Virus record (IMG/VR): IMGVR_UViG_3300030397_000460
Span: 1 to 33,739 of that record
Length of the DNA: 33,739 nt
Origin: a virus
Taxonomy: Duplodnaviria; Caudoviricetes
Direction: 5' to 3' (one strand)
Within the stretch, counting starts at the first letter, position 1. Every line of letters starts with the position of its first letter. The notes below the pieces were generated by a model that was not told the origin of the DNA, made no database searches, and was given only the letters and a program-made list of their open reading frames with translations. Both the position numbers and the translations under genes were made by a program. Below, in pieces: positions 8,038-29,543 of this stretch.

Positions 8038-8487
8038 ATGGCCAGAGTTTTTTACGCACCACTTGAGAATTTGAGCGTTACCAACGACGCTGACCAGGAT
8101 ATTTGGCAGTTAACCGCCGGCGCGAATGACAAGCTGGAATTGCTTGGATTTGAGTTGTATTCGGCAGCCATAGCCGCAGAAGCCCTGCGAATGCGCTTGA
8201 TTCGACGCACGACCACGGGCACAGGTACCGCAGAGCCTGAGAATGAGGCCGATGAGGGCATGACCACGGCTGCCACCGCTGCGTGTGTGTCGTTAGTCAC
8301 CACACCGGGCACGGCGGGTGAGGTATTGCAGGCGTATCAATGGGAGCAATTGGGTCCGCTCATTTATGCACCCACGCCCGAGCAGTATATCAAGGTCCAG
8401 GAGGGCGGTCGGATTGCGCTCAATCTCCTGACAGCACTGAACGCCACCACTGTCATGGATGGCTGGGTCTGCTGGCGCGAGCTGTAG
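8038..8487 (+). CDS. Small putative virion beta-sandwich protein (149 aa)
   Basis: Strong RBS (AGGAGG) upstream; alternating beta-strand pattern; sits between the two repeat proteins. Confidence 0.6.
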   Translation: MARVFYAPLENLSVTNDADQDIWQLTAGANDKLELLGFELYSAAIAAEALRMRLIRRTTTGTGTAEPENEADEGMTTAATAACVSLVTTPGTAGEVLQAYQWEQLGPLIYAPTPEQYIKVQEGGRIALNLLTALNATTVMDGWVCWREL

Positions 8488-13620: not shown

Positions 13621-13936
13621 GAAACTCACCAAACGACAGCAGATCGCCCGCGGCAAGCGGGTTGAAAAGCTGCTCGAAAATAAAGATTTGAAAGAGGCTT
13701 TTGCCGATGTGAAGGCCGCCATCCATCAGCAAATCGATGAGCTTAAACCCTCGCAGATCGATGAGCTGATTCTCTGTAAAGAACGCCTGCACGTCCTCAA
13801 GAGTGTTGAAGCAAATCTGACCTTAGCTATCAAACATGGCAAGAAGGCGGAATTTCAGATTCTTGAACAAGACAGGCCGACGCCCTTAGGAGATATACAC
13901 GCATGGAGACGCAAGAAGCTGGAGCAGACCAGCTAA
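13613..13936 (+). CDS. Conserved small head-module protein between portal and scaffold
   Basis: 107 aa, helical and basic; overlaps both neighbours; position typical of P22-like phages. Confidence 0.65.
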   Translation: MAKKLTKRQQIARGKRVEKLLENKDLKEAFADVKAAIHQQIDELKPSQIDELILCKERLHVLKSVEANLTLAIKHGKKAEFQILEQDRPTPLGDIHAWRRKKLEQTS

Positions 13937-14910
13937 CCCCGCAACAGGCCGCCGAGAGCAAGATCGAGAATTTGCTCTTTCCCCAGGCCGAACCAGAACC
14001 GCCAACCGAGCAACCCGAGGCAGAACTTGAGCCAGAGCTTGAGGGTGAGTTCGTGGAGGAGCCTGACCCCGATGATCTAGACGCCCTTGAGGTCGAAGGC
14101 GAGGAGGTCGAGGAACAGGTCACCGAACCTGAAATGTTCGAGATGGAGATTGACGGCCAGTTGTACGAGGTACCGGAGCCGATCAAAAACCAGCTTGAGC
14201 AGGCGCAGGATTACACCGCAAAGACCCAACAGGTGAGCGAGCAGCGCAAGACGCTGGAAACACTGACCGCTGAGCAAAACCAGGCCAAGTTACAGAACGA
14301 ATTCCTGGAGTCTGTGGCCGATGAGCGCAACCAGGCAGAGCGCCTTGAGTGGCAAATGGGTGAGCTGCGTACGTACATGCGTAACAACATTGATAATCTG
14401 TCCGGACAAGACCTGGAAAAGGTCCGCTGGCAGATTGAGGAGTACAAAACCGAGCAGGATGGACTTGTCAGGTCCATGCAGGCAAAATGGCAGTCGCATC
14501 AGCAAGCCGCGGAGCAATCCCAAAGCGAACTCCGCGCCAAGAGCACTGAGGCCATGAAATCTCGTTTGCCCAATTGGAGCGACGAGGCGCACGAGGACAC
14601 GAAAAAATTCGGCCTCACTGTGGGTTACTCCCAGGAGGAGGTCGATGCAGCCGTTGACCCTCGTGACTTACACGTTCTGTGGATGGCCTCCCAGTACATG
14701 CGCCTCAAGGCTGGACAGCCCGCCGCCATTGGTAAAGCGAGAGCCGCATCCGCCATACGTCCCAAAGGTGCACGAGATACCGTGAAACCAGAGACCAGGC
14801 GGAAAATTTCTATAAGGAAACGACTCAACAACGCCAAGCGCGCAGGCGCATCCGACAAGGAAACGGCGAAAATGATCCAGCAGGACTTAGAGGACCGCGG
14901 GATTTTTTGA
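13903..14910 (+). CDS. Capsid scaffolding protein
   Basis: RBS AGGAGA; acidic N-terminus, EIDGQ.YEV and QDYTAKTQ motifs, coiled coil, basic C-terminus; precedes the major capsid gene. Confidence 0.85.
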   Translation: METQEAGADQLTPQQAAESKIENLLFPQAEPEPPTEQPEAELEPELEGEFVEEPDPDDLDALEVEGEEVEEQVTEPEMFEMEIDGQLYEVPEPIKNQLEQAQDYTAKTQQVSEQRKTLETLTAEQNQAKLQNEFLESVADERNQAERLEWQMGELRTYMRNNIDNLSGQDLEKVRWQIEEYKTEQDGLVRSMQAKWQSHQQAAEQSQSELRAKSTEAMKSRLPNWSDEAHEDTKKFGLTVGYSQEEVDAAVDPRDLHVLWMASQYMRLKAGQPAAIGKARAASAIRPKGARDTVKPETRRKISIRKRLNNAKRAGASDKETAKMIQQDLEDRGIF

Positions 14911-14942
14911 GTTCGTAATCTCAAGGAAAGGAGGGCCAAAGG

Positions 14943-15947
14943 ATGGCCGCACTCACAGGAACATCCAGTACCTATTCAGTGGGTACTGGTGGTGGTAACA
15001 GGGAGGACTTGTCAGACACGATTTATGATCTGTTTGCTGATGACACGTTTTTCCTGACCAATCTGGATCGCTCAAGCTCTGCTGCAACCACGCATGAATG
15101 GCTTGGCGATTCTCTGGCTGCCGCGGCTGCCAATATCGCGGTTGAGGGTGATGACGCAACATTCAGCACCATCAGCAACGCTGCGCGATATGGCAACTAC
15201 ACGCAGATTTTCAAGAAAACCTTTTTGGTCTCACGTACTCAAGAATCAGTACGCAAGGCCGGTCGTAGTTCGGACGTTTCACGGCAAGCCATCAAGCAGA
15301 TGCGCGAGCTTAAGAATGACGTTGAATTCGCGCTGGTCAGAAACAGTGCAGGTACGGCAGGTGGCGCAACGACTGGCCGCTCGCTGGCAGGCATGGAGAC
15401 CTGGATCGGTGAGGCCTCGACCTCGGGTGGTGCAACGGCTGCAAACGTAGTCCGCGCAACCACGGCCGCTAGCGCAACCACACCGGCTGTGGCCTCAGGT
15501 GTGCCAGGAACGGCGCCCACTGATGGAACCACGACTGGCGCTCTCACCTCTGGCGCATTGAATGCAGCACTTGAGGGGGCCTGGGAGGATGGTGGCACCA
15601 CCGACATCATTGCAGTAGGGGCACAGGTCAAGAACACGATCAATGATCTGACCTCAATTGCAACCCGTCAGGTGGACGTATCCCGCGGCGCTCAGGCGTC
15701 GATCACGGGTGCGGCTGATCTGTATGTGTCGAACTTTGGCACGCACCGGGTGCTGTTGCACCGTCATATCCGCAACTCGGTTGCGCTCTGCCTGGATACC
15801 TCTCTCTGGGCATGGGCACCGCTTGACGACTTCTTTATGGAGCCGTTGGCGAAAACCGGTGATGGCGAGAAACGCCAACTGATTGTCGAGGGTACGCTGG
15901 AAGCGCGTAACTACATCGGCAATAGCAAGGTCGTCGCTATCGGATGA
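14943..15947 (+). CDS. Major capsid protein (DUF5309/SU10-like family)
   Basis: Strong RBS AAGGAGG; GNREDLSD.IY, HEWL.DSL, EGDDA, NYTQIF.K...VS.T and LAKTGD motifs. Confidence 0.9.
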   Translation: MAALTGTSSTYSVGTGGGNREDLSDTIYDLFADDTFFLTNLDRSSSAATTHEWLGDSLAAAAANIAVEGDDATFSTISNAARYGNYTQIFKKTFLVSRTQESVRKAGRSSDVSRQAIKQMRELKNDVEFALVRNSAGTAGGATTGRSLAGMETWIGEASTSGGATAANVVRATTAASATTPAVASGVPGTAPTDGTTTGALTSGALNAALEGAWEDGGTTDIIAVGAQVKNTINDLTSIATRQVDVSRGAQASITGAADLYVSNFGTHRVLLHRHIRNSVALCLDTSLWAWAPLDDFFMEPLAKTGDGEKRQLIVEGTLEARNYIGNSKVVAIG

Positions 15948-16709: not shown

Positions 16710-17026
16710 AATGGTTTACTAGGGCGGTCAACCGCCGCAAGACATATCCCAAGAACCACTACGGGATTCCGTCAATTGATGATCTGTACGAGGTTGAGGA
16801 TTTCCTCCGAAATACGGGTGAAAAATACCGAGCGGACAGAATTCGCAATGCTCGAATCACCATGAAGATTTATCTTGATCTGATTTATCAGTTTTCAGAA
16901 TTGGCCGAGGAATTGGACTGGTTCGACGGTTTGAAGGATTTCGATGCGCTCCGGGCATTTCTGGAAAACTGTGATGCTGACGATGTTCGACAGGCCAACA
17001 GAGAAAAGGCAAGGAAAAAGGCGTGA
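16706..17026 (+). CDS. Hypothetical protein (106 aa)
   Basis: GTGA-coupled at both ends; more AT-rich than its neighbours. Confidence 0.55.
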   Translation: MKWFTRAVNRRKTYPKNHYGIPSIDDLYEVEDFLRNTGEKYRADRIRNARITMKIYLDLIYQFSELAEELDWFDGLKDFDALRAFLENCDADDVRQANREKARKKA

Positions 17027-18528
17027 CCCGCGAAACCGACCTGAAGCGAGGTCAACACCTGTCAAAGGCTGGCGACTGGGACGCGGCCTACAAGATTGCC
17101 AACAAATACCTGTGGCTTGACCCGAATGATGTCGATGCCCTGATGCTGATGATTTTTGTCATGATGGGCACCGGCAAGCACACCATTGCCTATGCCATGA
17201 CCCGGCGCTGTCTTGAGTTGGCCCCGAATTACGCCTCAGTCCACCTGAATGCCGGCATGGCAGCCAACGAGCTTTGGCGCTCAAAAGAGGCCGAGAGGCT
17301 GTATCGACGCGGCATCAACATGGCCGCAACCCCTGAGCAATTGTCCAAATTCCTGATCAATCTCACCGGCGTCTATATCGACAATGGCAGATTTGACGAG
17401 GCCGAGGAGCTTTGTCAGCAGGTCCTGCAACTGACGCCAGACAGTCCGAAGGGCAAAGCCAATCTCGGTTTTTGCCAAATCGCCACCGGGCGCTGGAAAG
17501 AGGGCTGGCCGAACTATCGCTATGTGACCGGCACCGAGTTTAGGCCCAAAACGCAATATGGTGACGAGCCTGAATGGGACGGTGTTTCACGTGGAACAAT
17601 CGTACTGTATGCCGAGCAGGGCATTGGCGACATGATCTGTTTTGCCTCGATGCTGCCCGACATGATGGAGTGGTGTGCTGAGAATGAATCAACCCCGATT
17701 CTTGAGACCGATTGGCGGCTGTCGAACCTGTTCAAGCGGTCATTTCCGGATCTGGTGATTTATCCGACCGCGAGCGTCACTGAGCAGACCTATAAGCCAC
17801 AGCACAAGTGGAAAGACGAGCATTGCAGCATCGATTATTCGATACCGATGGGCCAGATTGGGGAGTATTTCAGGAACGCTGACGAGGACTTTCCGCGCAC
17901 ACCGTATCTCGAGCCCGACCCCGACGAGCATTTCAAGTGGCGGTCCCTGTTTGAATCGAAGGGCAAGCCCGCGATTGGCATCGCCTGGACCGGGGGCGCA
18001 CCCAAGACCGGCGCCCACAAGAAACGCCTCGATCTTGAGCAATTACTGCCCTTATTTGAGCGCATTGACGCGCATTGGGTTAGCCTGCAATACAAGCCCG
18101 CCACAGAGGAAATTTCAGTATTCAGGGAAAAACACCCGAATATTGACTTGACAGAGTATCCGCATTACACGCTTGCGCCTGATTATGATTTCACCGCCTC
18201 ACTGGTCTCGGCACTGGATGCCGTGGTCAGTGTGCCGACATCGGTAGTGCATTTGGCCGGTGCTTTGGGGGTACGGACTGTGGCGATGGAAGCGCCCATG
18301 CGCTGCTGGAAGTTCGAGGCCGGCAACCCCTTCCACCCCATTACGGCACAGATACCGCATTCCGAGGATTGGGAAGCGACCATTGCCGAGACCGCAAGTT
18401 ATCTGGAGGACTTATGTTTACCGAGCGCGACAAACACCGATTCTGGTCTAGGGTCAATATCAAAGGACCAAACGATTGCTGGGAATGGACTGCCGGAAAA
18501 TCCAACGGATACGGTAGTTTCCGACTGA
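17023..18528 (+). CDS. TPR-repeat protein with a C-terminal GT-B (GT9/heptosyltransferase-like) glycosyltransferase domain
   Basis: TPR helices in the N-terminal ~170 aa; EQGIGDMICFAS, IGIAWTGG, WVSLQY and TASLVSALDAVVSVPTSVVHLAGALG motifs. Confidence 0.8.
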   Translation: MTRETDLKRGQHLSKAGDWDAAYKIANKYLWLDPNDVDALMLMIFVMMGTGKHTIAYAMTRRCLELAPNYASVHLNAGMAANELWRSKEAERLYRRGINMAATPEQLSKFLINLTGVYIDNGRFDEAEELCQQVLQLTPDSPKGKANLGFCQIATGRWKEGWPNYRYVTGTEFRPKTQYGDEPEWDGVSRGTIVLYAEQGIGDMICFASMLPDMMEWCAENESTPILETDWRLSNLFKRSFPDLVIYPTASVTEQTYKPQHKWKDEHCSIDYSIPMGQIGEYFRNADEDFPRTPYLEPDPDEHFKWRSLFESKGKPAIGIAWTGGAPKTGAHKKRLDLEQLLPLFERIDAHWVSLQYKPATEEISVFREKHPNIDLTEYPHYTLAPDYDFTASLVSALDAVVSVPTSVVHLAGALGVRTVAMEAPMRCWKFEAGNPFHPITAQIPHSEDWEATIAETASYLEDLCLPSATNTDSGLGSISKDQTIAGNGLPENPTDTVVSD

Positions 18529-18887
18529 GAAAGAACACAACCGCTGTTGGTAGTCATCGTATTGCATACGAGCTTAATAACGGCCCAATTCCAGAAGGCT
18601 TGCATGTGATGCACAAATGCGACAACAGGGCGTGCTGTAATCCATTTCATCTGATGCCAGGCAACAACCTTGCAAACATTTATGACTCAATGCGTAAGGG
18701 TAGACGCAAGGGCGTAACCAGAAACAGGCCTTCTGGGCTGGTTTATCGGAAAGGCGCTGACTATCAATCGAAGTGGCGCTGGGCGCGTGACCGGATGGTT
18801 GATTTGCGTAGTTATGGTTGCACGTACAGTCAAATTGCTGATTGGTTTGGGTGCGCGCCAATGACCGTGTATAGGCAAACGTCATGA
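18414..18887 (+). CDS. HNH homing endonuclease
   Basis: RFWSRV....DCWEWTAG...GYG.F...SHRIAY......IPEGL.VMHKCDNRACCNP.HL..G...N..D, plus a C-terminal HTH; GGAGGA RBS; lower GC than the flanks. Confidence 0.9.
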   Translation: MFTERDKHRFWSRVNIKGPNDCWEWTAGKSNGYGSFRLRKNTTAVGSHRIAYELNNGPIPEGLHVMHKCDNRACCNPFHLMPGNNLANIYDSMRKGRRKGVTRNRPSGLVYRKGADYQSKWRWARDRMVDLRSYGCTYSQIADWFGCAPMTVYRQTS

Positions 18888-19555
18888 GTCAATATAGGGT
18901 CATGATCGGCTACGATCCCCGACAGCCCGTAGCCTATAACGTCGCCCAGCACAGCGTTATCCGCAATGCCTCGAAACCGGTCTGCATTACGCCATTGGTG
19001 CTGAATCAGCTACCGATTACCCGGCGCGGGCTAACTGAGTTCACGTTCTCGCGCTTTCTGGTGCCCTGGTTGTGCGATTTCAAGGGTAAGGCCATGTTCA
19101 TGGACCCGGATATGATCGTTTTGGGCGATGTCTGCGCCATGATGGATGCCAGGGACCCAATGGCGGGCGTGGTGCATGTGGTCAAGGACCAGCCTGAGTT
19201 TGAATGGCCGTCAATGATGGTGTTTTCCAACGCCAGATGCCGCAATTTGACCCCAGAATACGTCGAAAACCCCGAAAATCCCCTATTTGGCTTCGATTGG
19301 GCCGATAAAGTGGGCGAAATCCCCGCTGAGTGGAATTTTTGTGTTGGGTATCAGGGCGAGGAGTGCAACACGTTTGGTCCAGTCAACCCCAAGAAGCTTT
19401 ACCATTTCACAGAAGGTTTGCCGATTTGGCCCCAGACAAGAAATCACCCTGACCATTCACCAATATGGGAGAAAGAATTCAACGATGCCAATTCCAGCGT
19501 CAGCTATGCTGAGTTGATGGGGAATTCCGTACACGCACAGAGGCGGAAAACATGA
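18884..19555 (+). CDS. GT-A fold glycosyltransferase (GT8/CDI-like)
   Basis: IGYDPRQ..AY.V...S, TEFTFSRFLVP, DxD motif FMDPDM, WPSMMVF, EWNF.VG and HFTEG.P. Confidence 0.8.
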   Translation: MSQYRVMIGYDPRQPVAYNVAQHSVIRNASKPVCITPLVLNQLPITRRGLTEFTFSRFLVPWLCDFKGKAMFMDPDMIVLGDVCAMMDARDPMAGVVHVVKDQPEFEWPSMMVFSNARCRNLTPEYVENPENPLFGFDWADKVGEIPAEWNFCVGYQGEECNTFGPVNPKKLYHFTEGLPIWPQTRNHPDHSPIWEKEFNDANSSVSYAELMGNSVHAQRRKT

Positions 19556-19761
19556 ATCTTGATGCAGCAGAGCGCATGGATGGAGTGCGAACTTGGGTGC
19601 AGTGGTTAAGACCAAAAGGCAGAGGAGTTCGTCATGCTGTTATAAAGCATGAGTGGCAGTATGGATGTTATAGCGCCTGTGGAGAATCAAACTTGCAAGA
19701 CCCACACGTCAGCGATGACAGCCCGAAATGTAAGCGTTGCCTGAAATTGGTAAGACCATGA
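19552..19761 (+). CDS. Small Cys/His (zinc-finger-like) protein (69 aa)
   Basis: H...C...C and CKRC motifs; ATGA-coupled at both ends. Confidence 0.5.
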   Translation: MNLDAAERMDGVRTWVQWLRPKGRGVRHAVIKHEWQYGCYSACGESNLQDPHVSDDSPKCKRCLKLVRP

Positions 19762-20384
19762 GAATCACTGACGATTACCGCGCCCAGCAGCGCGAACTGC
19801 ACGACACCGGCAACTATGGTGTCACGGCACAGAAATATGGTCAGTTCTTGTCACGAATCATTGAAAAGCAGGAAATCGACCACGTACTGGACTATGGCTG
19901 CGGATCCAATCTCAGTCTCACCCAGACTCTGAAGCCCAATCGCGAGATTGTCTATCAGCCCTATGACCCCTGTGTGCCGAAATACGCCGATGACCCGATC
20001 CCGGCTGATTTGGTGTGCTGCATCGATGTGCTGGAGCATATTGAGCCTGACTGCCTTGAGGATGTGCTGGACCACCTGGAGGACCTGACAGGGGCGATCC
20101 TTTTCTGCTCGATCAACACCGGCCCAGCCGGCAAAACCTTGAGCGATGGCCGCAATGCACACCTGATCCAGCAGCCAATGCAGTGGTGGCTGCCAAAGTT
20201 GTTTGAAAGGTTTACAATTCAGACGGTACAGATGGCAGGACAACAGGAATTCTTTGTCATCGCCCAACCCCAAAGGACGGAGTTGGCAATCGGACCCAAG
20301 CCCATCGCGGCCAGTCCGATTATCACAAACGGAGGTGGATCATCGCTGTCATCACCAACTACGCAACACTCCAAACCGCGGTAG
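19758..20384 (+). CDS. Class I SAM-dependent methyltransferase
   Basis: Motif I VLDYGCG, YDP, and DLVCCIDVLEHIEP; ATGA-coupled start at 19758. Confidence 0.88.
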   Translation: MRITDDYRAQQRELHDTGNYGVTAQKYGQFLSRIIEKQEIDHVLDYGCGSNLSLTQTLKPNREIVYQPYDPCVPKYADDPIPADLVCCIDVLEHIEPDCLEDVLDHLEDLTGAILFCSINTGPAGKTLSDGRNAHLIQQPMQWWLPKLFERFTIQTVQMAGQQEFFVIAQPQRTELAIGPKPIAASPIITNGGGSSLSSPTTQHSKPR

Positions 20385-20947
20385 CTGATTACCTCGCGAA
20401 AAGTGATCTGTCCGGCCATATTCCGAACTTCATTCAGAACACCGAAAACAAGCTATACCGCACCCTCAATCTCCGCAATGAGGAAACGCAGATGTCTATT
20501 GCGGTGTCGAGCGGTACGGGTACGGTGCCAACCCCGTTTAAGGCGCTGAAATTCGCCTATATCGACGATGCCGAGCGTCGCATGCTGGAATGGCTGCCGA
20601 TTGAACAGCTTTACGCCAAATATCCGAACAGATCGGGCGCGCACACACCGTCATTCATCAGCCGGGATGGCACTGAGTTCGTATTTGGTCCCGCACCAAA
20701 GGATTTCAGCCTGAAGGGCGTTTATTACGCCAAGCAGGACAATCTGCACGATACTGACGGCAGTTGGTACGTGCAGAATGCCCCCGAATTGCTGCTTTAT
20801 GGCGCATTGCTCGAGGCCGAGCCCTACATCAAGAATGACGAGCGTATTCCGGTCTGGCGTGAGTTATTCAATGAGGCGGTGAAAACGGTCCAGATCGAGC
20901 AGCGCAATGGCGAGTATTCCAAAGGCTTGAAAGCGATGCGCGGGTGA
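20342..20947 (+). CDS. Head-tail adaptor / tail tubular protein A-like; probable non-canonical ATC start
   Basis: The frame is open upstream of the 20492 ATG and encodes the family-typical N-terminus AVITNYATLQTAVADYL..SDL...IPNFI...E; C-terminal PELLLYGALLEAEPYIKNDERI..W; GGAGGT lies 5 nt before ATC 20342. Confidence 0.8.
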   Translation: MAVITNYATLQTAVADYLAKSDLSGHIPNFIQNTENKLYRTLNLRNEETQMSIAVSSGTGTVPTPFKALKFAYIDDAERRMLEWLPIEQLYAKYPNRSGAHTPSFISRDGTEFVFGPAPKDFSLKGVYYAKQDNLHDTDGSWYVQNAPELLLYGALLEAEPYIKNDERIPVWRELFNEAVKTVQIEQRNGEYSKGLKAMRG

Positions 20948-20950
20948 TCT

Positions 20951-21445
20951 ATGTCAAAGGTCAAACTGGACTTTCTGAACTGGCGCCCGGACCTTGAGGA
21001 TTACGATAATCAGGGCTTGATTGAGGCGCAGAATGTCTTTCATCAGCCAGAGGGCTGGAAGGAATACAAAACCCCGACGGTCGGTGCGTTTGTCACCAAT
21101 ACCGCGCTCGGCACCTGTCCCTCGGTGGTCATCAAGTCCGTTGGCACCAACAATCAGCGCATAGCCGCCTTTCTGCATAACCCGGTGGTGGCCGGTGCTG
21201 GCGCCACGATTGACTTTAGTATCGGTATATTCAGCCAGGGCTATACCACCATTGGCCTCTATACCACCTACACCTCATCGACCATCAGTAGTTTGCTGAC
21301 CGGCAATAACGTGATGGCCTTTGATGTCTGTGAGTTGGACGGACTGATATTTTTCTCCGCACAGGCCGAACTGCCAACCGCAACCATACTGAATGCCGCA
21401 GCACCGGTGATAACGCTTAACTCAACGGGGTACGCCACGATATGA
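20951..21445 (+). CDS. Tail nozzle/stabilisation protein (P22 gp10-like), N-terminal part
   Basis: F.NWRPDL.......EAQNV....GW N-terminal motif; follows the adaptor gene. Confidence 0.6.
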   Translation: MSKVKLDFLNWRPDLEDYDNQGLIEAQNVFHQPEGWKEYKTPTVGAFVTNTALGTCPSVVIKSVGTNNQRIAAFLHNPVVAGAGATIDFSIGIFSQGYTTIGLYTTYTSSTISSLLTGNNVMAFDVCELDGLIFFSAQAELPTATILNAAAPVITLNSTGYATI

Positions 21446-21942
21446 GCAAGTTTTCATACGACTTGCCGGGGTCCGGCGGTGGCACGTTTGCCAGCGTGTC
21501 GGTGCCAAGCGTGGGCTGTGCGCGGGTGCGCGATCATGTGGTGGTGTTGCCAACCGCGGATCGATACAGCATTCGCTGGTGTGCGATTGGTGATCCGACT
21601 GACTGGCCAACCCCTGACACCGATGATGCCCGCGCCAAGCAGGCAGGCTTGCAGCAATTCCCCAGTGAGTTTGGCGTAGTCACCGGTGTTGCCGGCAATG
21701 ACTTTTTTGCCTATGTGTTTCAGGAGACCGCCATCACCAAAATGGTGTATATCGCTGGCGATGAGGTCTATAGCTTCGATACCTTTGAGGAGGGCCGTGG
21801 GTGCTGGCGTTTGAATCGCTTCTCGCGCACTGATGACAAGGTGTTTTTTGAGTCGGAATTCGGCTATCACATGCTGGAAAACGACATCATTTTGGATATT
21901 GGCGAGGGCGCCGTCGATAAAACTTACGAGCCGTCTACCTAA
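21442..21942 (+). CDS. Tail nozzle/stabilisation protein, central beta-propeller part
   Basis: RDHVVV...IRWCAIGDPTDW...Q...Q.FP..G.VTG...VFQE.AI.KM.Y....YSFD....GRGC...VFF.S..GY....IG...VD. Confidence 0.7.
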   Translation: MSKFSYDLPGSGGGTFASVSVPSVGCARVRDHVVVLPTADRYSIRWCAIGDPTDWPTPDTDDARAKQAGLQQFPSEFGVVTGVAGNDFFAYVFQETAITKMVYIAGDEVYSFDTFEEGRGCWRLNRFSRTDDKVFFESEFGYHMLENDIILDIGEGAVDKTYEPST

Positions 21943-22499
21943 TGGCATTAGTCACCCCCGCACAGAATGAGCAAAAAAATGTCGTGGTCAACGAATCGTT
22001 GTCTGTGGTGTTTTTTCAGTCTCGGGGCTTGGCCTACAACTGGAAAACCGAGCAATGGTCACGGCTCAATGCCTCGGTCGGCAAACGCTTTTTTGCCGTT
22101 GAGGACAATGAGCGCGTACTGGGCACCGTTGAGGCATCAGGCAGCGCCGTCATGGTGCAGGACTCACGCCAAACCGGGCTTTCTGTGGCAGCGACTGCAA
22201 CCTTTGTCACCGGTGAGTTTGAGTTCGAGACCGGCCGCCAGGTAACTGTGGATGGTATGCGTCCCATCACAGACGGGGCGAGCCTTACATCGACCCGCAT
22301 TGGTGTTCGCGATTTGGTGGATGATGCCGTGACCTTTGTCACCGGTAGCGCGATCAACAGCCGTTCAGGGTTTTCCGGCTATCGTGGCGTGACCGCCAAG
22401 CCGACCGGTCAGTATGCTCGTGCCGAATTGATATTTGAGGGCGGCTTTACCACCGTCAGCGGTGCCGAATTTGAGTTCTTTTTGGCGGGCGAGCTTTGA
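21942..22499 (+). CDS. Tail nozzle/stabilisation protein, C-terminal part
   Basis: LAYNW.TEQWS, TGEF, RPITDG, IG.RD and GQYARAEL motifs; TAATG-coupled. Confidence 0.65.
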   Translation: MALVTPAQNEQKNVVVNESLSVVFFQSRGLAYNWKTEQWSRLNASVGKRFFAVEDNERVLGTVEASGSAVMVQDSRQTGLSVAATATFVTGEFEFETGRQVTVDGMRPITDGASLTSTRIGVRDLVDDAVTFVTGSAINSRSGFSGYRGVTAKPTGQYARAELIFEGGFTTVSGAEFEFFLAGEL

Positions 22500-22930
22500 G
22501 GGTAAACGGTTCCCGGATACTGGAAAGTCCGCGTCTTTGCAGGGTTTTAGAGGGGGAGGTTCCGGAGCTTTGGCGGCTGGTCAAGCCAGAGATTGAGCGC
22601 GCCATTGCCAACGGTTGCCAGTGGAATATGCAGGAAATCCACGACCGCATCACCGATGGCCGAATGCAGCTTTGGATCTATGGTGAGCATGAGATTGATG
22701 CGGTTCTGGTCACTCGCTGCACCGATCATTGTCTATTATTGGCCTGTGCGGGTTACAATATGCACCGATGGCTAAGGCATTTGAGCCTGATTGAGGTATT
22801 CGCCAGGCAGATGGATTGCCAGCGAATGGAGCTTCACGGCCGCAGAGGCTGGCAAAAAGTGCTGAAAGGATACCGGCACCAGGGTACAGATGAGCTTGGC
22901 TTGCACGTTCTCACAAAGGATTTGACATGA
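22496..22930 (+). CDS. GNAT-fold virion morphogenesis protein (P22 gp14-like position)
   Basis: W..VKP.IERA...I..G.MQLW...VLVT...AG..M..W...IE.FAR..DC.R.E..GR.GW.KVL.GY pattern. Confidence 0.7.
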   Translation: MRVNGSRILESPRLCRVLEGEVPELWRLVKPEIERAIANGCQWNMQEIHDRITDGRMQLWIYGEHEIDAVLVTRCTDHCLLLACAGYNMHRWLRHLSLIEVFARQMDCQRMELHGRRGWQKVLKGYRHQGTDELGLHVLTKDLT

Positions 22931-23526
22931 GCGGCGGCAGCAGACAGAACACCACGGCAACCACCAACCAGAGTGCGTTGACCAATTCCAGCATCAGGAA
23001 TAACCCCATTCTCAATGAATCCGTTGGCGTTGGCACTGATTTCATCAACCGCGCGTTGCAGTTTGGCGAGGAGGACCCGCTTACCACGGGCGCTCGTGAT
23101 GTGGTGGGCGATACCCTGTCTGGGCAAAACTTAGGCGAGGAAAACCCCTTTCTCGAGCGCGTATTCAATCGTGGTGCTGATGCGATCACGCAGCGTTTGC
23201 AGGGCGGTTTTTCCCGCGCCGGGCGCAATATTGCCGCGGCAAGGCCGGTCGCCGCTGATGAATTGGGCTCATTTCGTGCGCAGCTATTCGGTGATAACTT
23301 CCAGCGCGAGCGTGATCGACAGGTGAATGCGGTTGGTCAAGCGCAGGGCTTGGCGCCGATTGACCAGTTTTTGCGCAGATTGGGCCAACTGGGCAATGTG
23401 GCGGGCCGTGATGTCAGCGGTAGTTCCGTTAGTTCCGGAACCACAGACCAGACCACTAGAGAGCGTAGCAGCGTTCTTGATCGTGTGCTTGGCATAGGTG
23501 CTAGCCTATTTCTCCCGGGGGCGTAA
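22927..23526 (+). CDS. Ejection/pilot protein 1 (P22 gp7-like)
   Basis: MSGGS..TT N-terminus, NPFL, ERDRQ..A and an amphipathic C-terminus VLGIGASLF; position after the GNAT-like gene. Confidence 0.7.
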   Translation: MSGGSRQNTTATTNQSALTNSSIRNNPILNESVGVGTDFINRALQFGEEDPLTTGARDVVGDTLSGQNLGEENPFLERVFNRGADAITQRLQGGFSRAGRNIAAARPVAADELGSFRAQLFGDNFQRERDRQVNAVGQAQGLAPIDQFLRRLGQLGNVAGRDVSGSSVSSGTTDQTTRERSSVLDRVLGIGASLFLPGA

Positions 23527-23527
23527 T

Positions 23528-24739
23528 ATGCCAATTGGACCGTTTTTGCTCGCCAATCAGCGATTCACCGACCCTGAGGAATTGTTGCGCAATCCCGAGG
23601 CTTTCGGGGGTACGCCACCGTTTGTGCCCAATGAGCAGGTACCAAGCCCGACATCGGGGCCGCCTGCGGTAACGAGACTGCCGGGCGGCTTCAATAGTGG
23701 CCCTCCGCGTCCCGGGGCTGGCGACAGAGGGCCGATCGATCGAAATCGGACCCCAAGCATTGCTGAACTGATTTTGCGCCGTACAGGGCGTTTCGGTGAG
23801 GCTGTACGCCCAGCCACCAACTTTATCGGCGATGTATTCAATTCGGCCCGGAGTTCTGCCAGGCAGGGCTTTCTGGCCGGCGTCGCGCCTGACTTCACCC
23901 GTGGTGTGTTGCTGGGCGATCAAAATCGCAGGGCCGAGGAGGCCAATACTCGTCAGAACGCACTGGCCAGCACCGAAATTGCCGCCGCGTTGGCGGGTGT
24001 GGGCGGCCCTCAGGAGTCGCCGTTCGGAAAAATCAATCCGTCTGATTTCACTACCGAGTCATTGCAACGCTTCCAGAACAGTGGCGATTTCGGGGATTTG
24101 GTGGCCCGTGATGGTACCCCGGCCGATCCTGCCGCGGTGGCTGCGTTTAAGTTCCGCGAGGGTCTGAGTCCCGAACAGCAAAGGCAATTTGATTTGGTGC
24201 AACGTGGCTTTAGTGCCAGCAACCAACCGGGTGTGGGCGTTGTGTCCAACCGTGGCGAGGTATTGGCCACTGAGCAGGATGTTCAGGATGCACAAGCGGG
24301 CCGTGCCGGTGCGACGAGGCAGGCCACAGCCGATGTTGGTGCGCCGGTAGAGCTTCAGGGTCGCATTGACGAGGCCGAGCAGTTCATTGAGCGTCTGCTG
24401 GGTGCCAGGAATGATTTGCAGTCCGGACGCCTGAATACCGGCTTTATTGCGGGTAGGGCGCCGGCGTTATCAGATGCCGCGCAGCGTTTTGACGAGATTG
24501 CCAGCACTGGCGTTTTGAATGATCTGGCCAGTGGCAGCTTTGGGCAGTTGAACACCTCAGAATTGCAATTTGTGAAGGATCTGAACATCGCCCGGACCAA
24601 AAATGAGGATGTGAATATCGACCAGATTGATCGCTTAATTGAGATTCTACAGCGTGAGGTCGGACGCTCACGGGATGAAATCAGCAGAATCCAGGGCGGA
24701 CGCTCTGAAGTAATTAACTTTGGCGACTTGCCGGAATGA
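23528..24739 (+). CDS. Ejection protein 2 (P22 gp20-like position)
   Basis: 403 aa, Gly/Ala/Gln/Arg-rich; C-terminal GQLNTSEL.F...L......N...IDRL motif typical of injected proteins. Confidence 0.65.
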   Translation: MPIGPFLLANQRFTDPEELLRNPEAFGGTPPFVPNEQVPSPTSGPPAVTRLPGGFNSGPPRPGAGDRGPIDRNRTPSIAELILRRTGRFGEAVRPATNFIGDVFNSARSSARQGFLAGVAPDFTRGVLLGDQNRRAEEANTRQNALASTEIAAALAGVGGPQESPFGKINPSDFTTESLQRFQNSGDFGDLVARDGTPADPAAVAAFKFREGLSPEQQRQFDLVQRGFSASNQPGVGVVSNRGEVLATEQDVQDAQAGRAGATRQATADVGAPVELQGRIDEAEQFIERLLGARNDLQSGRLNTGFIAGRAPALSDAAQRFDEIASTGVLNDLASGSFGQLNTSELQFVKDLNIARTKNEDVNIDQIDRLIEILQREVGRSRDEISRIQGGRSEVINFGDLPE

Positions 24740-24740
24740 T

Positions 24741-26381
24741 ATGCCTGACGTACGCCTGCCAGACGGTCGAATAATTCGCGATGTCCCGGATGGCATAACA
24801 CAAAGCGAACTGATGGGCCGCCTGGACCGGGCTGATCGTCGTGCCCGTGTTGAGGAGCGCATTGCCAGCAATCCGGCCGAGTTTGACCCCTCCAGCGCGG
24901 AATTTCAGGCCCGCTTTGGACCAACCAGCGCCAGTTCACGCTTTGAGAATTTCCTTGCAGGGGCAGGCAAAGCCGCGATTGATACCGCGCGTGGCTTTCG
25001 CCAGTTGCTGGGCTCCGACACGGTACAGGCCGAGATTGACGAATCCCGCAGGCTTGATGAGCCGCTTTTGAATACCACCTCGGGGCTTGTTGGTAACATC
25101 ACCGGCAATGTGGGTATTGCGCTGGCGCCGGGCGCCATTGCGACCCGAGCACCGGGTGCTGCAACGCGCTTGTCACAGACCATCCAGGCCCTGTCTAACC
25201 CCAACACGGTCAGGACGGCCGCAGCCTCAGGCGCGGCGCTGGGTGCTGTGCAGCCGGTCGCCACCGATGAATCCAGATCCTTTAATGTCGGCGCTGGTCT
25301 GGTTGGTGGTGCGGTTGGCCAGAGATTGGCCCGGCCCATTGCAAATCGCTTGTCGCAGGCGGGCAATGATGCGGTTGAACTTCTGAGAAATGCCGGTGTG
25401 CCGCTTGATGCGGCGCAGCGCAGTGGAAGCCGTGCGCTCGAGGTATCACGAGCCCTGCTTGATGACAGCATATTCACCGCGGGCGGCCAGGAGGCTTTTG
25501 GCGAGGCACAGGCCCGCGGCTTTACCCGCGCTGTGTTGCGCACTATCGGTGAGGATGCCGATCAGGCCACGCCCGCTGTACTCAGGAGGGCCAGAAATCG
25601 CATCGGGCGGGTATTTGATGAAATCGCCGAGACCAGCCCGCCGCGGTTTGATCAGGAGCTTATGGGTCAGTTGGTAGAGATTGGCCAGACAGCAAGGCGC
25701 GCATTGACGGCTGCCGATCAGCGGGTATTGGCCAGGAACTTGCGCGATATTGTCGAGGCCAACCAGGGCGGATTTATTAACGGCAATCGGTTTAACCGTA
25801 TTCGCTCGAATCTCGGCAGGCTGACCACCCGCCCGGATATTGGCGAATTTGCAGGCATGGCACAGGATGCACTGGTTGGTGCATTGCGGCGCAGTTCCCC
25901 AGCGCAGGCTGACGCGCTTGATGTGGCAGTCCAGCAGTTTCGCAACTTGAGAAACGTCCAGAGCGCCATCGATAAGGGATCAGATCGCTTTATCAATCCA
26001 TTACGCCTGTCAAACGCTTTGCAAAACAAGCGCAATCAAAATCTGAGCCTGTTTGGTCTGGGCGGTGAGCTAAACCTCGAGCTTGCAGACCTTGCCCGCG
26101 CGGGTCGTGAGGTCTTGCCAGATGCGATTGGCAATTCAGGGACTGCCGCCAGGCAACAGCAATTGTCCAGGAGCCTGCTTGATGTGGGCGTTGGTGCACT
26201 GGCTTTACCATTGGGTGGCCAGAGCCTTTTGAACAGCCAGCGGGTTGCAGGGCGTTTGCTCACCGGTGAATTACCGGGCCTTGCTGGTGCGGTTGCCAGA
26301 CAAGCGCCATCGGCACAGGGGCGCAATATTCAGTCGCAGATATTTGAGCGCGACTTTGATTTTGAGCCACCCTTGCAGTGA
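24741..26381 (+). CDS. Ejection / DNA transfer protein 3 (P22 gp16-like position)
   Basis: MPDVRLPDG.II.DVPDG.T N-terminus, Gly/Ala-rich membrane-like stretches, and the NSGTA.R motif near the C-terminus. Confidence 0.72.
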   Translation: MPDVRLPDGRIIRDVPDGITQSELMGRLDRADRRARVEERIASNPAEFDPSSAEFQARFGPTSASSRFENFLAGAGKAAIDTARGFRQLLGSDTVQAEIDESRRLDEPLLNTTSGLVGNITGNVGIALAPGAIATRAPGAATRLSQTIQALSNPNTVRTAAASGAALGAVQPVATDESRSFNVGAGLVGGAVGQRLARPIANRLSQAGNDAVELLRNAGVPLDAAQRSGSRALEVSRALLDDSIFTAGGQEAFGEAQARGFTRAVLRTIGEDADQATPAVLRRARNRIGRVFDEIAETSPPRFDQELMGQLVEIGQTARRALTAADQRVLARNLRDIVEANQGGFINGNRFNRIRSNLGRLTTRPDIGEFAGMAQDALVGALRRSSPAQADALDVAVQQFRNLRNVQSAIDKGSDRFINPLRLSNALQNKRNQNLSLFGLGGELNLELADLARAGREVLPDAIGNSGTAARQQQLSRSLLDVGVGALALPLGGQSLLNSQRVAGRLLTGELPGLAGAVARQAPSAQGRNIQSQIFERDFDFEPPLQ

Positions 26382-26797
26382 CCCGGCAGACCAGAACCAG
26401 GATTGATCAAAACCGGGGCCGACCGATCGATGCCCGCACCTTTGAGCAATCCTCAGATCCACTGAAGTTTGCCATTCGGCATCGCAATATCAGTTCCGCC
26501 TCTGGCGTGTTGACGCTGGACTTGGCACAGGCCAATAGCTTTACCTGCACCCTGACCGAGAACATCACCAGCATTGATGTCAATGGCCCGATGCGCACCG
26601 ACCAGTTTTGGTTTTTCTATCTTGAGCTGATCCAGGAGGCCACAGCCCGCACCGTGACATGGCCAGCGGCTTTTCTATTCCCCGGCGGGACCGATCATGT
26701 GATGTCCACCGGCAATGCCGATATTGACAGCATTTTTGGATATAGCCTTGATGGCGGTAGTAATTGGCGCTGTCGCTTTGAAACCAATTACGCATGA
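26378..26797 (+). CDS. Short tail-fibre-associated beta-sandwich protein (139 aa)
   Basis: LTLDL..ANSF..TLT.NIT...L.L.Q....RTVTWP....PGG.......D....S.DGG.NW domain common in phage fibres. Confidence 0.65.
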   Translation: MTRQTRTRIDQNRGRPIDARTFEQSSDPLKFAIRHRNISSASGVLTLDLAQANSFTCTLTENITSIDVNGPMRTDQFWFFYLELIQEATARTVTWPAAFLFPGGTDHVMSTGNADIDSIFGYSLDGGSNWRCRFETNYA

Positions 26798-27216
26798 AAG
26801 TACGCAGAACAACGGATTTTATTGTTGTGCATTGTTCGGCCACGAAGCCGACTCAGGATATAGGGGCGGCCGAAATTCGTCGATGGCATGTTGAGGATCG
26901 TGAGTTTAGCGACATTGGCTATAATCAAGTAATAAGACGGTCTGGTGCAATTGAGCTTGGCCGACCGCTGCATCTGGCAGGTGCTCATGCCAAAGGTTTT
27001 AATGCTGTCTCGGTATCAGTTTGTTTGGTTGGTGGCATAAATCCGAATGGCAGACCTGAGAACAATTTCACTGATGATCAGTTTGAATCGCTTCACAAGA
27101 CGCTAGAATATTGGTCTTGTATATATCCAGCGGCTACTATACTTGGCCATAGAGATTTACCAGACGTTACAAAAGATTGTCCATGTTTTGATGTGAGGGA
27201 ATGGCTGGATGGATAA
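26794..27216 (+). CDS. Endolysin, N-acetylmuramoyl-L-alanine amidase (T7 lysozyme-like)
   Basis: IVVHCSAT, DIGY..VI.R.G..E.GR....GAHAKGFN, GHRDL and KDCPCFDV (Zn ligands His/His/Cys). Confidence 0.93.
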   Translation: MKVRRTTDFIVVHCSATKPTQDIGAAEIRRWHVEDREFSDIGYNQVIRRSGAIELGRPLHLAGAHAKGFNAVSVSVCLVGGINPNGRPENNFTDDQFESLHKTLEYWSCIYPAATILGHRDLPDVTKDCPCFDVREWLDG

Positions 27217-27352
27217 AGCTGAGATTAAGGACAGACTAAGCAAGCTAAAACCCCGCCTGGAAAAACTTTGGGGCAAATACCCGTTGGTCGCGCTGACCTA
27301 TTTCCTTGCAGGGGCATTGGCCGGCGTCGGTCTTTGTTTGGTGCTGTCATGA
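27209..27352 (+). CDS. Small membrane protein (47 aa; not in the ORF track)
   Basis: MDKAEIKDRLSKLKPRLEKLWGKYPLVALTYFLAGALAGVGLCLVLS; overlaps the amidase stop and is ATGA-coupled downstream. Confidence 0.6.
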   Translation: MDKAEIKDRLSKLKPRLEKLWGKYPLVALTYFLAGALAGVGLCLVLS

Positions 27353-27603
27353 TTGGTGAGGTTCCACCGGACTTTCCAAAGATTTACTGGTTGGCTTGGT
27401 TGATCATTGGCTTTGGTGCAATGGAGGCTTGGGCGGTCTATACCGGGCGCGTTGAGTGGACTTTTTCATATACGGTTTGGTGGCTGCTTGGCACAGGTGA
27501 GGAAACCAGGGAATGGTTTCGGTGGATTGCCCGCGCAGGTGTTGCGGTCTTGTTTGCGTGGCTAATTCCGCACTTTTTCACGGGATGGGAATGGTTCCGG
27601 TGA
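27349..27603 (+). CDS. Trp-rich membrane protein (84 aa), holin candidate
   Basis: Two hydrophobic segments; coupled at both ends. Confidence 0.55.
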   Translation: MIGEVPPDFPKIYWLAWLIIGFGAMEAWAVYTGRVEWTFSYTVWWLLGTGEETREWFRWIARAGVAVLFAWLIPHFFTGWEWFR

Positions 27604-27785
27604 GTTCATTTGGCCAGTGGGGCTCTGCTGACGTTCATTCTCGATACATAGAGAAGGTGCCAAGCAAAAGCAGGCGGCGATGCAATTGTGGTTGTAAGCA
27701 AAGGGCCACCCACATGGGCATGGCAAATGGTGTTTGCTTGATTAAAGGGTGTAGTTTGTCCATACGGAGGTGGTCCAAACAATGA
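27600..27785 (+). CDS. Small Cys-rich basic protein (61 aa)
   Basis: GTG start overlapping the upstream stop; CNCGC...H...C...C; ATGA-coupled downstream. Confidence 0.5.
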   Translation: MSSFGQWGSADVHSRYIEKVPSKSRRRCNCGCKQRATHMGMANGVCLIKGCSLSIRRWSKQ

Positions 27786-28060
27786 AATACGCAAGTGCAG
27801 AATGGATTAACGAACACCGGGTATTTCCGCGGATATTCGTGGCGTCGTATCTGTGGTTTTACGGCTATGTGCTGATTCAGGTCTTTGACTGGTTCGTACA
27901 GTACGATTTCAACAATCTGCCCAGCGACCAGATCATCGGTGCCGCAGCCGTTGCCGGTGTGGTGGCGTTTCCGGGATTGATCCTGACCACCATGTCAAAC
28001 ACCCTGAAACAAATCCTGTCCAGCTATTGGAACGGAACGCCAAAGAGTGCTGATCAGTGA
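27782..28060 (+). CDS. Two-TM membrane protein, holin-like
   Basis: RVFPRIF...Y.W followed by two hydrophobic segments; immediately upstream of the spanins. Confidence 0.55.
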   Translation: MKYASAEWINEHRVFPRIFVASYLWFYGYVLIQVFDWFVQYDFNNLPSDQIIGAAAVAGVVAFPGLILTTMSNTLKQILSSYWNGTPKSADQ

Positions 28061-28653
28061 ATAACCTCCTCATCGGCGGGACAGTCACTGGCTGGATTGG
28101 GTGTATCTTATGTTTTAGCTTGTGGCAGGAATCCAAAGAGGATCTGGCCGCAGAAGTGGAGCGATGCAATGCCGACAAACTGGCTTCGATCACGCAGGCG
28201 CAAGATGAAACACGAATCGCCTTGCAGCGAATCCATGACAACGAACTCGCCCAGATTGAGCGGAACATTACACTTGCCCAGCAAGCCCGAGACACTGCCC
28301 AGGCTGCCGCGGATCAAGCGGAATCCTTACTTGCAGGACAGGCGGCGCGGATAACCCAGCTAGAACTGGAGGCCAACATCGATGAAATACCCAGCTATGC
28401 TGATTGTTCTATTGTCTATATTCCTCGGAGCGTGTTGTACGCCGAGGGTTGTCACGCAGACGGAAGTGGTGACGGAAACGATTACCGAGTTTGTGTCGGT
28501 GCCTCCGGACTTAACCCGGCCGATTCCGCCTTCACCAATATTACCATCGGTGACGCCCACAGACTCTGGACCAGAGACCGGGCAGCATTAGGCGCCTGCA
28601 ATGGACGGCTTGACGGCATAAGGAACTTAACGGGTGAAGAACATCCTCGCTAA
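28057..28653 (+). CDS. Inner-membrane spanin (Rz-like); as sequenced it runs on into an o-spanin-like C-terminus
   Basis: N-terminal TM segment, long Ala/Gln coiled coil, and an embedded lipoprotein ORF in the +1 frame. Confidence 0.7.
   Translation: MNNLLIGGTVTGWIGCILCFSLWQESKEDLAAEVERCNADKLASITQAQDETRIALQRIHDNELAQIERNITLAQQARDTAQAAADQAESLLAGQAARITQLELEANIDEIPSYADCSIVYIPRSVLYAEGCHADGSGDGNDYRVCVGASGLNPADSAFTNITIGDAHRLWTRDRAALGACNGRLDGIRNLTGEEHPR
28382..28591 (+). CDS. Outer-membrane spanin lipoprotein (Rz1-like), probably frameshifted
   Basis: GGAGG RBS; MKYPAMLIVLLSIFLGAC lipobox; Pro-rich VSVPPDLTRPIPP. Confidence 0.7.
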   Translation: MKYPAMLIVLLSIFLGACCTPRVVTQTEVVTETITEFVSVPPDLTRPIPPSPILPSVTPTDSGPETGQH

Positions 28654-29015: not shown

Positions 29016-29543
29016 ATGGCGAAAAGACAATTTAGAAAATCCCCACAGGTTTGGCAAATCATGGGTGATGTTGCAACGATTGAAATCGTTCGCCGAAATG
29101 GTGAGAAACACACTGTTTATGCATCACGGCCAGATGTCTCTAAACTCGAAAAATATCGATGGCATATATGTGGCAAAGGTTATGCGTGGACCACTTGGGC
29201 TAGAAAAGACAAAATAGTATCCATGCACTCAATAGTTCTGGGTCGTGGTTGGCTTGATCACATCAACGGCAATAGATTAGATAACACACGCCAAAACCTT
29301 AGAAAAGCTACTCAAGCGCAAAACATGCGAAACAAAAAGCCGCATAGGGGCAAAAGAAGTAAGTATAAAGGCGTTTTTATTAGACGATACGGGAGAACAA
29401 GGGCAAGAATCGGTGTAAACGGTAAATTATTAGATTTGGGTGGTTTTGATTCAGAGAAAGAAGCGGCCCGGGCCTATGATATAGCAGCCGAAAAATTTCA
29501 TGGTGAGTTTGCACTTACAAACAAAATGTTAGGCTTGATATAG
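29016..29543 (+). CDS. HNH-AP2 homing endonuclease
   Basis: MH..V.....LDHINGNRLDN.R.NLR.AT..QN..N followed by the AP2 motif SKYKGV...ARI...LG.FD.E.EAARAYD.AA...HGEFA; AT-rich. Confidence 0.92.
   Translation: MAKRQFRKSPQVWQIMGDVATIEIVRRNGEKHTVYASRPDVSKLEKYRWHICGKGYAWTTWARKDKIVSMHSIVLGRGWLDHINGNRLDNTRQNLRKATQAQNMRNKKPHRGKRSKYKGVFIRRYGRTRARIGVNGKLLDLGGFDSEKEAARAYDIAAEKFHGEFALTNKMLGLI

Follow-up and report, generated by a model that had tools for sequence, protein, structure and literature searches.

Why should three adjacent phage genes encode proteins that do almost entirely without six amino acids? The question is raised by the IMG/VR virus record IMGVR_UViG_3300030397_000460, which in its entirety (33,739 nucleotides (nt)) is the stretch of DNA analysed here and is referred to as the window. 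Genes 1, 2 and 3 of the window (Table 1) follow one another directly, in the slots that correspond to the P22 ejection proteins gp7, gp20 and gp16. None of the three products contains Tyr, Trp, Cys or His; protein 1 also lacks Lys, protein 2 has four Lys and protein 3 has three, while internal Met is absent from proteins 1 and 2 and occurs three times in protein 3. Pooled over the 1,145 non-start residues, Tyr, Trp, Cys and His stand at 0, Lys at 7 and Met at 3. These counts, first made by hand in a note based on the DNA alone (the original prediction), match exactly on recount and have now been submitted to a binomial test. What follows argues that the trait is real, selected at the protein level and shared with related phages, and that the mechanism behind it is likely oxidative.

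The magnitude of the effect depends on the baseline. With 39 other open reading frames (ORFs) of the window as the standard (hand-picked; 9,090 residues), 33.1 Tyr, 23.2 Trp, 23.2 His, 18.1 Cys, 43.2 Lys and 22.2 Met are expected, for binomial P values from 2.5e-15 to 4.2e-7. This genome-wide baseline overstates the surprise, because Cys, His and Trp are already rare or absent in ejection-slot proteins generally. Cys is lacking in 67 of 67 gp16-like homologues, in 141 of 150 gp7-like proteins and in 22 of 23 reference ejection-slot proteins from seven other phages (including P22, T7 and SU10), and the references are already poor in His (0-1.6%) and Trp (0-1.2%). All 23 retain Tyr (0.6-4.9%), Met (0.8-4.6%) and Lys (1.4-8.6%); none of them is Tyr-free, which supports the original prediction. 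A slot-matched baseline (123 gp7-like, 17 gp20-slot and 58 gp16-like proteins, the gp20-slot rows being assigned by gene order) leaves three strong deficits: Tyr (0 vs 24.8 expected, P 1.7e-11), Met (3 vs 28.4, P 2e-9) and Lys (7 vs 42.4, P 2.2e-11). The deficits of Trp (0 vs 5.1, P 0.006) and His (0 vs 4.6, P 0.01) are modest, and the absence of Cys (0 vs 0.1, P 0.95) is ordinary. Phe (55 vs 28.7) and Arg (119 vs 65.1) are gained, bearing out the abundance noticed at the outset, and residues other than Y, W, H, M, K, F and R lie within 0.42 log2 of expectation. The purge of six residues that was first proposed thus holds for Tyr, Met and Lys; Cys drops out of it, Trp and His contribute modestly, and the loss of His and Lys is weak in the wider group of relatives. 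The window is the most extreme case among phages with all three genes.

The replacements are conservative, site by site. The gp16-like alignment comprises 50 of the 67 homologues (8 depleted rows and 42 outside rows, with P0016, which has six Tyr, counted outside). In its eight Tyr columns the depleted rows have Phe in 36 of 64 cells and Tyr in 0; at position 351 all 8 depleted rows have Phe, where 33 of the 42 outside rows have Tyr. Met110 is kept in 37 of 42 outside rows and is Leu in 6 of 8 depleted ones, and the 13 Lys columns are filled, in the depleted rows, by Arg in 46 and Lys in 15 of 104 cells. Of the Lys residues that survive in protein 3, K77 and K430 fall in the Lys columns that the family conserves best (90% and 62% outside the clade), and K412 is invariant within the nine-member clade to which the protein belongs. 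In nine Tyr columns of the gp7-like alignment (147 rows kept; rows outside 120-420 amino acids (aa) dropped), 151 of 288 cells hold Phe. The systematic replacement of Tyr by Phe and of Lys by Arg at homologue-conserved sites that had been suspected is therefore found, and Met is replaced by Leu as well. Tyr versions of two of the motifs singled out earlier, NPFL and LFGDNFQRER, are seen in homologues; for KINPSDFT, in gene 2, none was seen.

Lys-to-Arg change often follows GC content, and Tyr, Trp, His and Met are costly residues, so that GC drift, a codon or DNA-motif constraint, or amino-acid economy has to be considered. The DNA gives little room for it. G+C at third codon positions (GC3) is 0.60 in the ejection genes vs 0.63, the dinucleotides TA, TG and CA occur at normal levels in these genes when counted out of frame, and the GC content of depleted loci (0.45-0.55) overlaps that of non-depleted ones (0.43-0.71). 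GC drift is excluded by these comparisons, as the original prediction had held, and a DNA-level cause of any of these kinds was rejected on the same grounds. Nor does cost fare better: Tyr and Phe codons are equally AT-rich and the residues similar in cost, Arg takes more nitrogen than Lys does, and no economy is seen in the capsid protein, which is made in far greater amounts. Taken together, drift, constraint and economy are hardly credible as the cause. (The ejection genes, 22927-26381, do favour U-ending codons more than other genes do: GAT 51 vs GAC 20; TTT 37 vs TTC 18.)

The purge acts at the protein level, is site-conservative and is confined to the ejection slots. The putatively acetyltransferase-like protein encoded immediately upstream, in the gp14 slot, uses all residues (Y3 W5 C6 H8 M5 K4), as had been stated for this flanking gene. 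Y+W+C+H+M amount to 9.8% in the products of the four genes at 20951-22930; portal (Y14 W8 C6 H12 M18 K28) and capsid (Y6 W5 C1 H4 K9 M3) proteins retain these residues, and scaffold and hub proteins are of normal composition. The capsid does not shift with the state of the ejection genes: Y+W+C+H+M total 22 and 23 in the depleted relatives L020 and L119 vs 21 and 23 in the non-depleted L018 and L080 (L numbers denote related loci, P numbers individual homologues). The boundary can even run through a polypeptide. The gp7-like protein of L020 has a core of 212 aa with Y0 W0 H0 M0 and an appended S74-chaperone-like tail of 60 aa (Pfam match below cut-off) with Y4 W3 H1 M1, and in all three cases in which an S74-like tail follows a gp7 core with no or almost no Tyr (L020, P0102, P0110), the tail retains Tyr and Trp. 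S74-type chaperone tails are cleaved off. Appended S74-like tails, 60-74 aa long, are present on L020:10085-10903, P0102, P0110, P0138, P0151, P0156, P0170, P0211 and P0221 (8 of 150 gp7-like proteins, plus L020); L081, a close relative of L020, is without one.

Confinement to these slots bears on adaptation to an alkaline or saline setting, which would drop residues whose side chains titrate between pH 8 and 11 (Cys, Tyr, Lys). Exchange of Tyr for Phe and of Lys for Arg holds the charge state at high pH (pKa values), and other virion proteins of the window are also Lys-poor. However, exposed tail and capsid proteins retain Tyr, several Tyr-depleted gp16-slot proteins retain ~4% Lys, and the loss of Met and Trp is not predicted; such adaptation is very unlikely to be the explanation.

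The three genes are predicted, by slot, to encode P22-type ejection proteins, and their ejection is itself a prediction. They come after the hub-like and gp14-slot genes, are consecutive and coupled, and have the small-medium-large order of P22 gp7/gp20/gp16. Protein 3, one of a family of 67 homologues (itself included), matches phrog_26400, whose label 'DNA ejection protein' is an annotation (E 7.5e-35), and has a weak N-terminal profile match to P22 gp16 (probability 84%, 88 columns). Protein 1 has no direct match in Pfam, PHROG or NCBIfam and none among annotated phages. Its homologue P0008 (E 8e-19) matches phrog_4287 'DNA ejection protein' (E 6.7e-16), and its nearest named cluster in the protein atlas is PF25688 P22_gp7 (46% of members, score 0.91); one of 41 aligned members of the gp7-like family matches PF25688 (E 0.0084), and in profile comparison with P22 gp7 the match is confined to a 29-column glycine-rich tail. 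The structure model of protein 1 is all-helical (predicted local distance difference test (pLDDT) 70, predicted template modelling score (pTM) 0.42), and fold searches of PDB and BFVD gave it no match reaching E 0.001. Protein 2 has no direct family match. It is 29.6% identical (E 4e-31) to its L006 counterpart, which is 49.8% identical to that of L020; the L020 gp20-slot protein in turn weakly matches phrog_2534 'released from the phage upon host infection' (E 8e-4), a transitive link to protein 2, for which the atlas lead is PF16928 Inj_translocase (0.89). A PDB sequence search gave no match, and a single-protein locus search with protein 3 found nothing. The P22-type identity originally proposed thus stands as to slots, order and, for protein 3, phrog_26400, with proteins 1 and 2 linked only indirectly.

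Gene calls and assembly both find support. The starts of the three ORFs agree with stop-start coupling and with homologue N-termini. The ORF list gives longer starts (23498 GTG, 24720 TTG), which run into the gene upstream and would bring in one Tyr and one Cys. The window DNA is matched by contigs from four public runs; two differences are listed over 9,001 nt, and Leu330Val in gene 2 is one of them. These matching contigs rule out an assembly artefact (run X3 may be the source of the record).

The depleted state recurs in related phages, probably with more than one origin. The gp7-like family (the 150 best profile matches, with eight S74-like tails trimmed) is bimodal: Tyr is absent from 24 of 150 members, a share overstated by a search profile built mostly from Tyr-free rows, makes up at least 2% of 114 and is intermediate in 12. 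Low-Tyr and high-Tyr rows (27 vs 119, with four intermediates left out; the groups are set on Tyr only and the rows are related, not independent) differ in other residues: 25 of 27 vs 22 of 119 are Trp-free and 15 of 27 vs 6 of 119 are Met-free. From high to low Tyr, Met falls from 2.25 to 0.27% and Trp from 0.69 to 0.03%; His and Lys drop little. The 58 gp16-like homologues outside the nine-member clade have 3-18 Tyr and 3-26 Met, the clade itself 0-6 Tyr and 3-9 Met, with Phe up to 18-25. The core loss common to the depleted phages is thus Tyr > Met > Trp. Depleted loci are the window, L005-L007, L019, L020, L076, L078, L079, L081, L085 and L119 (L006 and L079, which are partial, are classed here); non-depleted are L018, L071, L072, L077, L080 and more distant phages, the intermediate L071, L072 and L110 being classed with them. 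Short fragments and intermediate cases occur among these loci. L019, L020, L076, L081, L113 and L075 have one or two additional small genes, coding for no Cys, ahead of or between their ejection genes; in depleted phages these too are Tyr-free. L020, L081 and L085, all depleted, share a dataset number even though L085 is of a distant lineage, a weak hint of a habitat or host link.

Phylogeny indicates how often the switch may have been thrown. With the adaptor and hub-like genes (20492..22499) as tree markers, the depleted phages do not form one clade (difference in log-likelihood 254; approximately unbiased test p 0.0005, with 2,000 replicates, below the program's advice). At least three sequence-distinct gp16-slot types are depleted. 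The L079 gp16 protein (Y1) joins its Tyr-rich counterparts of L116, L117 and L124 with support of 0.89-0.95 and stays out of the clade that holds the window's protein (support 1.0), a placement that recoding leaves unchanged. Both findings speak for more than a single purge. L079 and L071/L072 are nearly identical phages, yet their states differ. Trees of the gp7-like family give 10-12 parsimony changes vs 29 when shuffled; they were not used to count origins because of weak support on 243 columns.

That the loss of Tyr is the sharpest, and near-binary, is what might be expected of escape from a host or phage enzyme that tags Tyr (oxidase/tyrosinase, sulfotransferase, kinase or nucleotidyltransferase) or Lys, with the other losses secondary, and the phage does have modifying-enzyme-like genes. 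Met and Trp go with Tyr, however, which a residue-specific transferase does not require, and the phage's TPR/GT8/methyltransferase cassette is present in both states: tblastn, run on loci of which many are short fragments, detects the TPR gene in 6 of 11 that are depleted and in 7 of 17 that are not. As the sole cause of the trait this phage-encoded cassette is rejected on that account. A tagging oxidase working through radicals or quinones would merge with the explanation preferred below. Escape from tagging as such is quite unlikely.

What kind of chemistry would spare Phe, Leu and Arg? In Davies 2016 (PMC4819570, Table 6), peroxyl radical (ROO) and peroxynitrous acid (ONOOH) attack C, M, W and Y; singlet oxygen (1O2) and carbonate radical (CO3) attack C, M, W, Y and H; hypochlorous and hypobromous acids (HOCl/HOBr) attack C, M, H, K and W; and aldehydes attack C, R, K and H. 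Hydroxyl radical also attacks Arg, Pro and Thr (PMC4819570 and PMC7064263, each in the passages concerned). The singlet-oxygen/carbonate-radical set C, M, W, Y, H is represented 0, 3, 0, 0 and 0 times in the 1,145 residues, Cys being uninformative. The hypohalous set, with C, M, H, K and W low and Arg spared, also fits the window; passages of PMC7873122 make HOCl ~300-fold faster with Lys than with Arg and make Tyr a slow target (k 47), and the loss of His and Lys is weak in relatives. The aldehyde/hydroxyl-radical set is not avoided (Pro 60 vs 63 expected). Because Arg, their target, is nearly doubled (119 vs 65), hydroxyl radical and aldehydes, the latter among the agents listed in the original prediction, are disfavoured.

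The explanation that we favour, and hold tentatively, is selection against oxidant-reactive side chains in exposed, unfolded, single-use proteins at an oxidising host surface. It starts from the protein-level, site-conservative purge limited to the ejection slots and continues by analogy with P22. There, according to sections of bioRxiv 10.64898/2026.09.03.749273, gp7 and gp20 are packaged disordered, gp7 forms an extracellular channel and outer-membrane pore, gp20 spans the periplasm and gp16 reaches the inner membrane; ~12, 12 and 30 copies of gp7, gp20 and gp16 are injected and occupy space that DNA can fill (PMC8402733, in part), and SU10 gp20-24 exit the virion on ejection (PMC9509320, in part). 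The proteins of the window would likewise leave through the tail in disordered form and refold as a trans-envelope channel. Oxidation or cross-linking of a single subunit out of a few dozen might then be enough to block refolding and kill the infection, damage of a kind that folded capsid and tail proteins would tolerate. The oxidant would be selective and would arise on or close to the cell surface: peroxyl or carbonate radical, peroxynitrite or singlet oxygen, with hypohalous acid as an alternative that could account for the window's extra loss of Lys and His. The host surface is favoured as the site on account of state changes between close relatives and of an outside-in gradient: compared with other phages, the depleted ones have their Y+W+C+H+M reduced 24-fold in the gp7 slot and 3.3-fold in both the gp20 and the gp16 slot (8, 8 and 6 depleted vs 13, 11 and 11 other phages; the Tyr part is circular, the groups being defined on Tyr). 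Rz/Rz1-like spanin genes beside the amidase gene point to a two-membrane host. A host defence may lie behind the trait, as first proposed. The broadest version of this idea, that a group of aquatic two-membrane bacteria oxidises or cross-links foreign proteins at the cell surface as a chemical anti-phage barrier, which short-tailed phages have repeatedly answered with injection channels made from a reduced alphabet of ~14 unreactive residue types, is a speculation that is rather unlikely to hold.

The purge is hardest in the slot whose P22 counterpart enters the outer membrane, and this also suits a fit to an unusual envelope, in which Tyr, Trp, Lys and Met would be avoided as interface-seeking or translocation-slowing residues and odd lipids or a thicker surface layer would favour Phe, Leu and Arg. 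But the exclusion spans all 1,145 residues, long polar stretches included, and Phe and Arg are no less bulky than Tyr and Lys; envelope fit is a doubtful proposition.

Oxidation could, alternatively, strike before infection. Inside the capsid, light-driven oxidants or holes in the packed DNA would cross-link Tyr, Trp, Met, Cys and Lys of the disordered internal proteins with DNA or with one another and jam exit, with habitat, rather than host, as the selecting agent. Lys forms adducts with oxidised guanine (a reaction for which the literature search retrieved no source), and in-capsid damage accounts for the exempt capsid surface and spanin. P22 ejection proteins sit in DNA-fillable space (PMC8402733, in part), and reactive intermediates that form in sunlight attack W, Y, H, M, C and guanine (PMC7064263, in part). 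Against this, the DNA-contacting portal is normal; capsid Y+W+C+H+M counts do not separate the closest depleted relatives from the closest non-depleted ones; purging is much stronger in the gp7 slot than in the gp16 slot; and the difference in state between L079 and the near-identical L071/L072 fits a module swap with change of host. In-capsid oxidation is unlikely, although it is the leading alternative to the host surface.

A number of observations weigh against selection at an oxidising host surface. No one oxidant in Table 6 covers all six residues, and the fit was made after the fact. The gradient gp7 > gp20 = gp16 would also suit a position of gp7 near the tail opening of the stored virion. 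The spanin (Y4 W3 C7 H4 M0 K2) works in the periplasm yet is not depleted. Lys is scarce (0-1.3%), with no gain of Arg, in the products of four further structural genes of the window as well. Relative to Tyr-rich relatives, the wider depleted group is not lower in His (1.0-1.9-fold) and only 1.3-2.1-fold lower in Lys. The ejection genes of L116, L117 and L124 follow a second pattern (Trp 0, His 0-1, Met 2-7, Tyr 32-39, Lys kept), and just 1 of 14 of their Tyr columns is Phe in L079, a weak site-level signal. The 28-locus marker tree has five changes, which can be read as a single gain followed by four reversals or as several gains. No host was found by a capsid-protein scan of genome contigs (five distant loci, 32-39% identity), by cultured-phage searches (capsid identity <45%; amidase 51-57% to T7-like phages), by a cluster look-up of 20 proteins or by a profile search of 43 records (two weak gp7-like matches). 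The matching runs are labelled only 'aquatic metagenome', a label that specifies neither habitat chemistry nor an oxidant, and no RNA dataset was listed among the holders.

The rest of the window (Table 1) reads as a late module from a phage with a short tail: portal, capsid and adaptor genes, all SU10-type, are followed by amidase and spanin-like genes. Among the 39 window ORFs scanned there is no match to tape-measure, tube or sheath families; the record may be incomplete.

Table 1. Positions, strand and supporting matches of the principal features of the window
Feature	Position	Strand	Basis
SU10-type portal, scaffold, major capsid protein	11374..15947	+	PF23899 E 4e-135, PF17236 E 1e-74
TPR protein (weak glycosyltransferase-like C-terminus), GT8-like and methyltransferase genes	17023..20384	+	
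Adaptor and three-piece tail-hub-like genes	20492..22499	+	PF24175 SU10_adaptor E 9.7e-16; phrog_3287 (21442-21942)
P22 gp14 / T7 gp13 slot gene	22496..22930	+	gene order; only phrog_7642, unknown function
Gene 1, gp7-slot predicted ejection protein	22927..23526	+	199 aa
Gene 2, gp20-slot predicted ejection protein	23528..24739	+	403 aa
Gene 3, gp16-slot predicted ejection protein	24741..26381	+	546 aa
Amidase endolysin and Rz/Rz1-like spanin genes	26794..28653	+	PF01510 E 1.8e-12; PF23793 weak; phrog_3001 weak

The cassette at 17023-20384, between capsid and adaptor, is conserved across the group and possibly serves virion glycosylation; in L028 and L113 a radical SAM-type gene is added to it (in L113 by similarity). 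The tail-hub-like protein at 20951-22499 is divided among three genes in the window and close relatives and is a single protein of ~500 aa in more distant loci such as L022, L085 and L115. The acidic, Lys-poor (0-1.3%) structural proteins are encoded at 276-2366, 3323-3760, 6219-8036 and 8038-8487, mostly without a family match, and short repeated Ala/Ser/Thr-rich units occur at 6219-8036 and 8500-9627. The ORF at 4001-4558 is sulfotransferase-like (PF13469, below cut-off); tblastn found it in none of 28 related loci, most of which do not span that region. Two HNH endonuclease genes lie at 18369-18887 and 29016-29543, and an ORF with an ADP-ribosyltransferase-type domain (PF18760, E 3.4e-7) lies in the structural module of L028 (L028:16177-17139).

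Ejection proteins decide the entry of short-tailed phages and evolve fast and mosaically, and it is against this background that a near-binary compositional switch stands out. The clearing of Tyr from columns that are 75-95% conserved elsewhere would signify an unrecognised selective force on phage entry, be it a chemical barrier at the surface of some hosts or decay of the virion through damage to its internal proteins. If there is such an oxidising-host barrier, the Tyr/(Tyr+Phe) ratio of the gp7-like gene would mark the hosts concerned from sequence alone. The proteins are also candidates for natural, functional polypeptides that, over 200-550 residues, make do with little more than 14 amino acids.

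These are proteins of a known kind, with a near-binary compositional switch that is not described in the open-licence literature searched: PMC and bioRxiv under open licence yielded no phage protein evolved to avoid oxidant-target residues and no earlier account of this switch, and the available part of the ejection-protein review PMC8954989 does not contain 'amino acid composition', 'cysteine' or 'tyrosine'. The closest chemical parallel, Table 6 of Davies 2016 (PMC4819570), makes the window's lost set the sum of the 1O2/carbonate-radical set (C, M, W, Y, H) and Lys from the HOCl/HOBr set, but it is a chemical table and not a biological system. SU10 gp20-24 and T7 gp14-16 resemble the window's proteins in having 0-1 Cys and scarce His and Trp, and the window shares portal, capsid and adaptor types with SU10; they differ in retaining 1.4-3.7% Tyr, 1.9-4.6% Met and 1.6-8.6% Lys. 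P22 gp7/gp20/gp16 are likewise Cys-free and arranged in small-medium-large order after a gp14 slot, and the P22_gp7 and Inj_translocase leads point their way, whereas P22 retains Y11/11/15, W2/3/1, K9/17/34 and M4/17/15, has no full-length sequence match to the window proteins and does not share the window's SU10-type head and tail. Clear homology is found nearer by, in the PHROG 26400 family, where gene 27 of Rhodoferax phage P26218 and a protein of Bradyrhizobium phage ppBeUSDA76-2 are relatives of protein 3.

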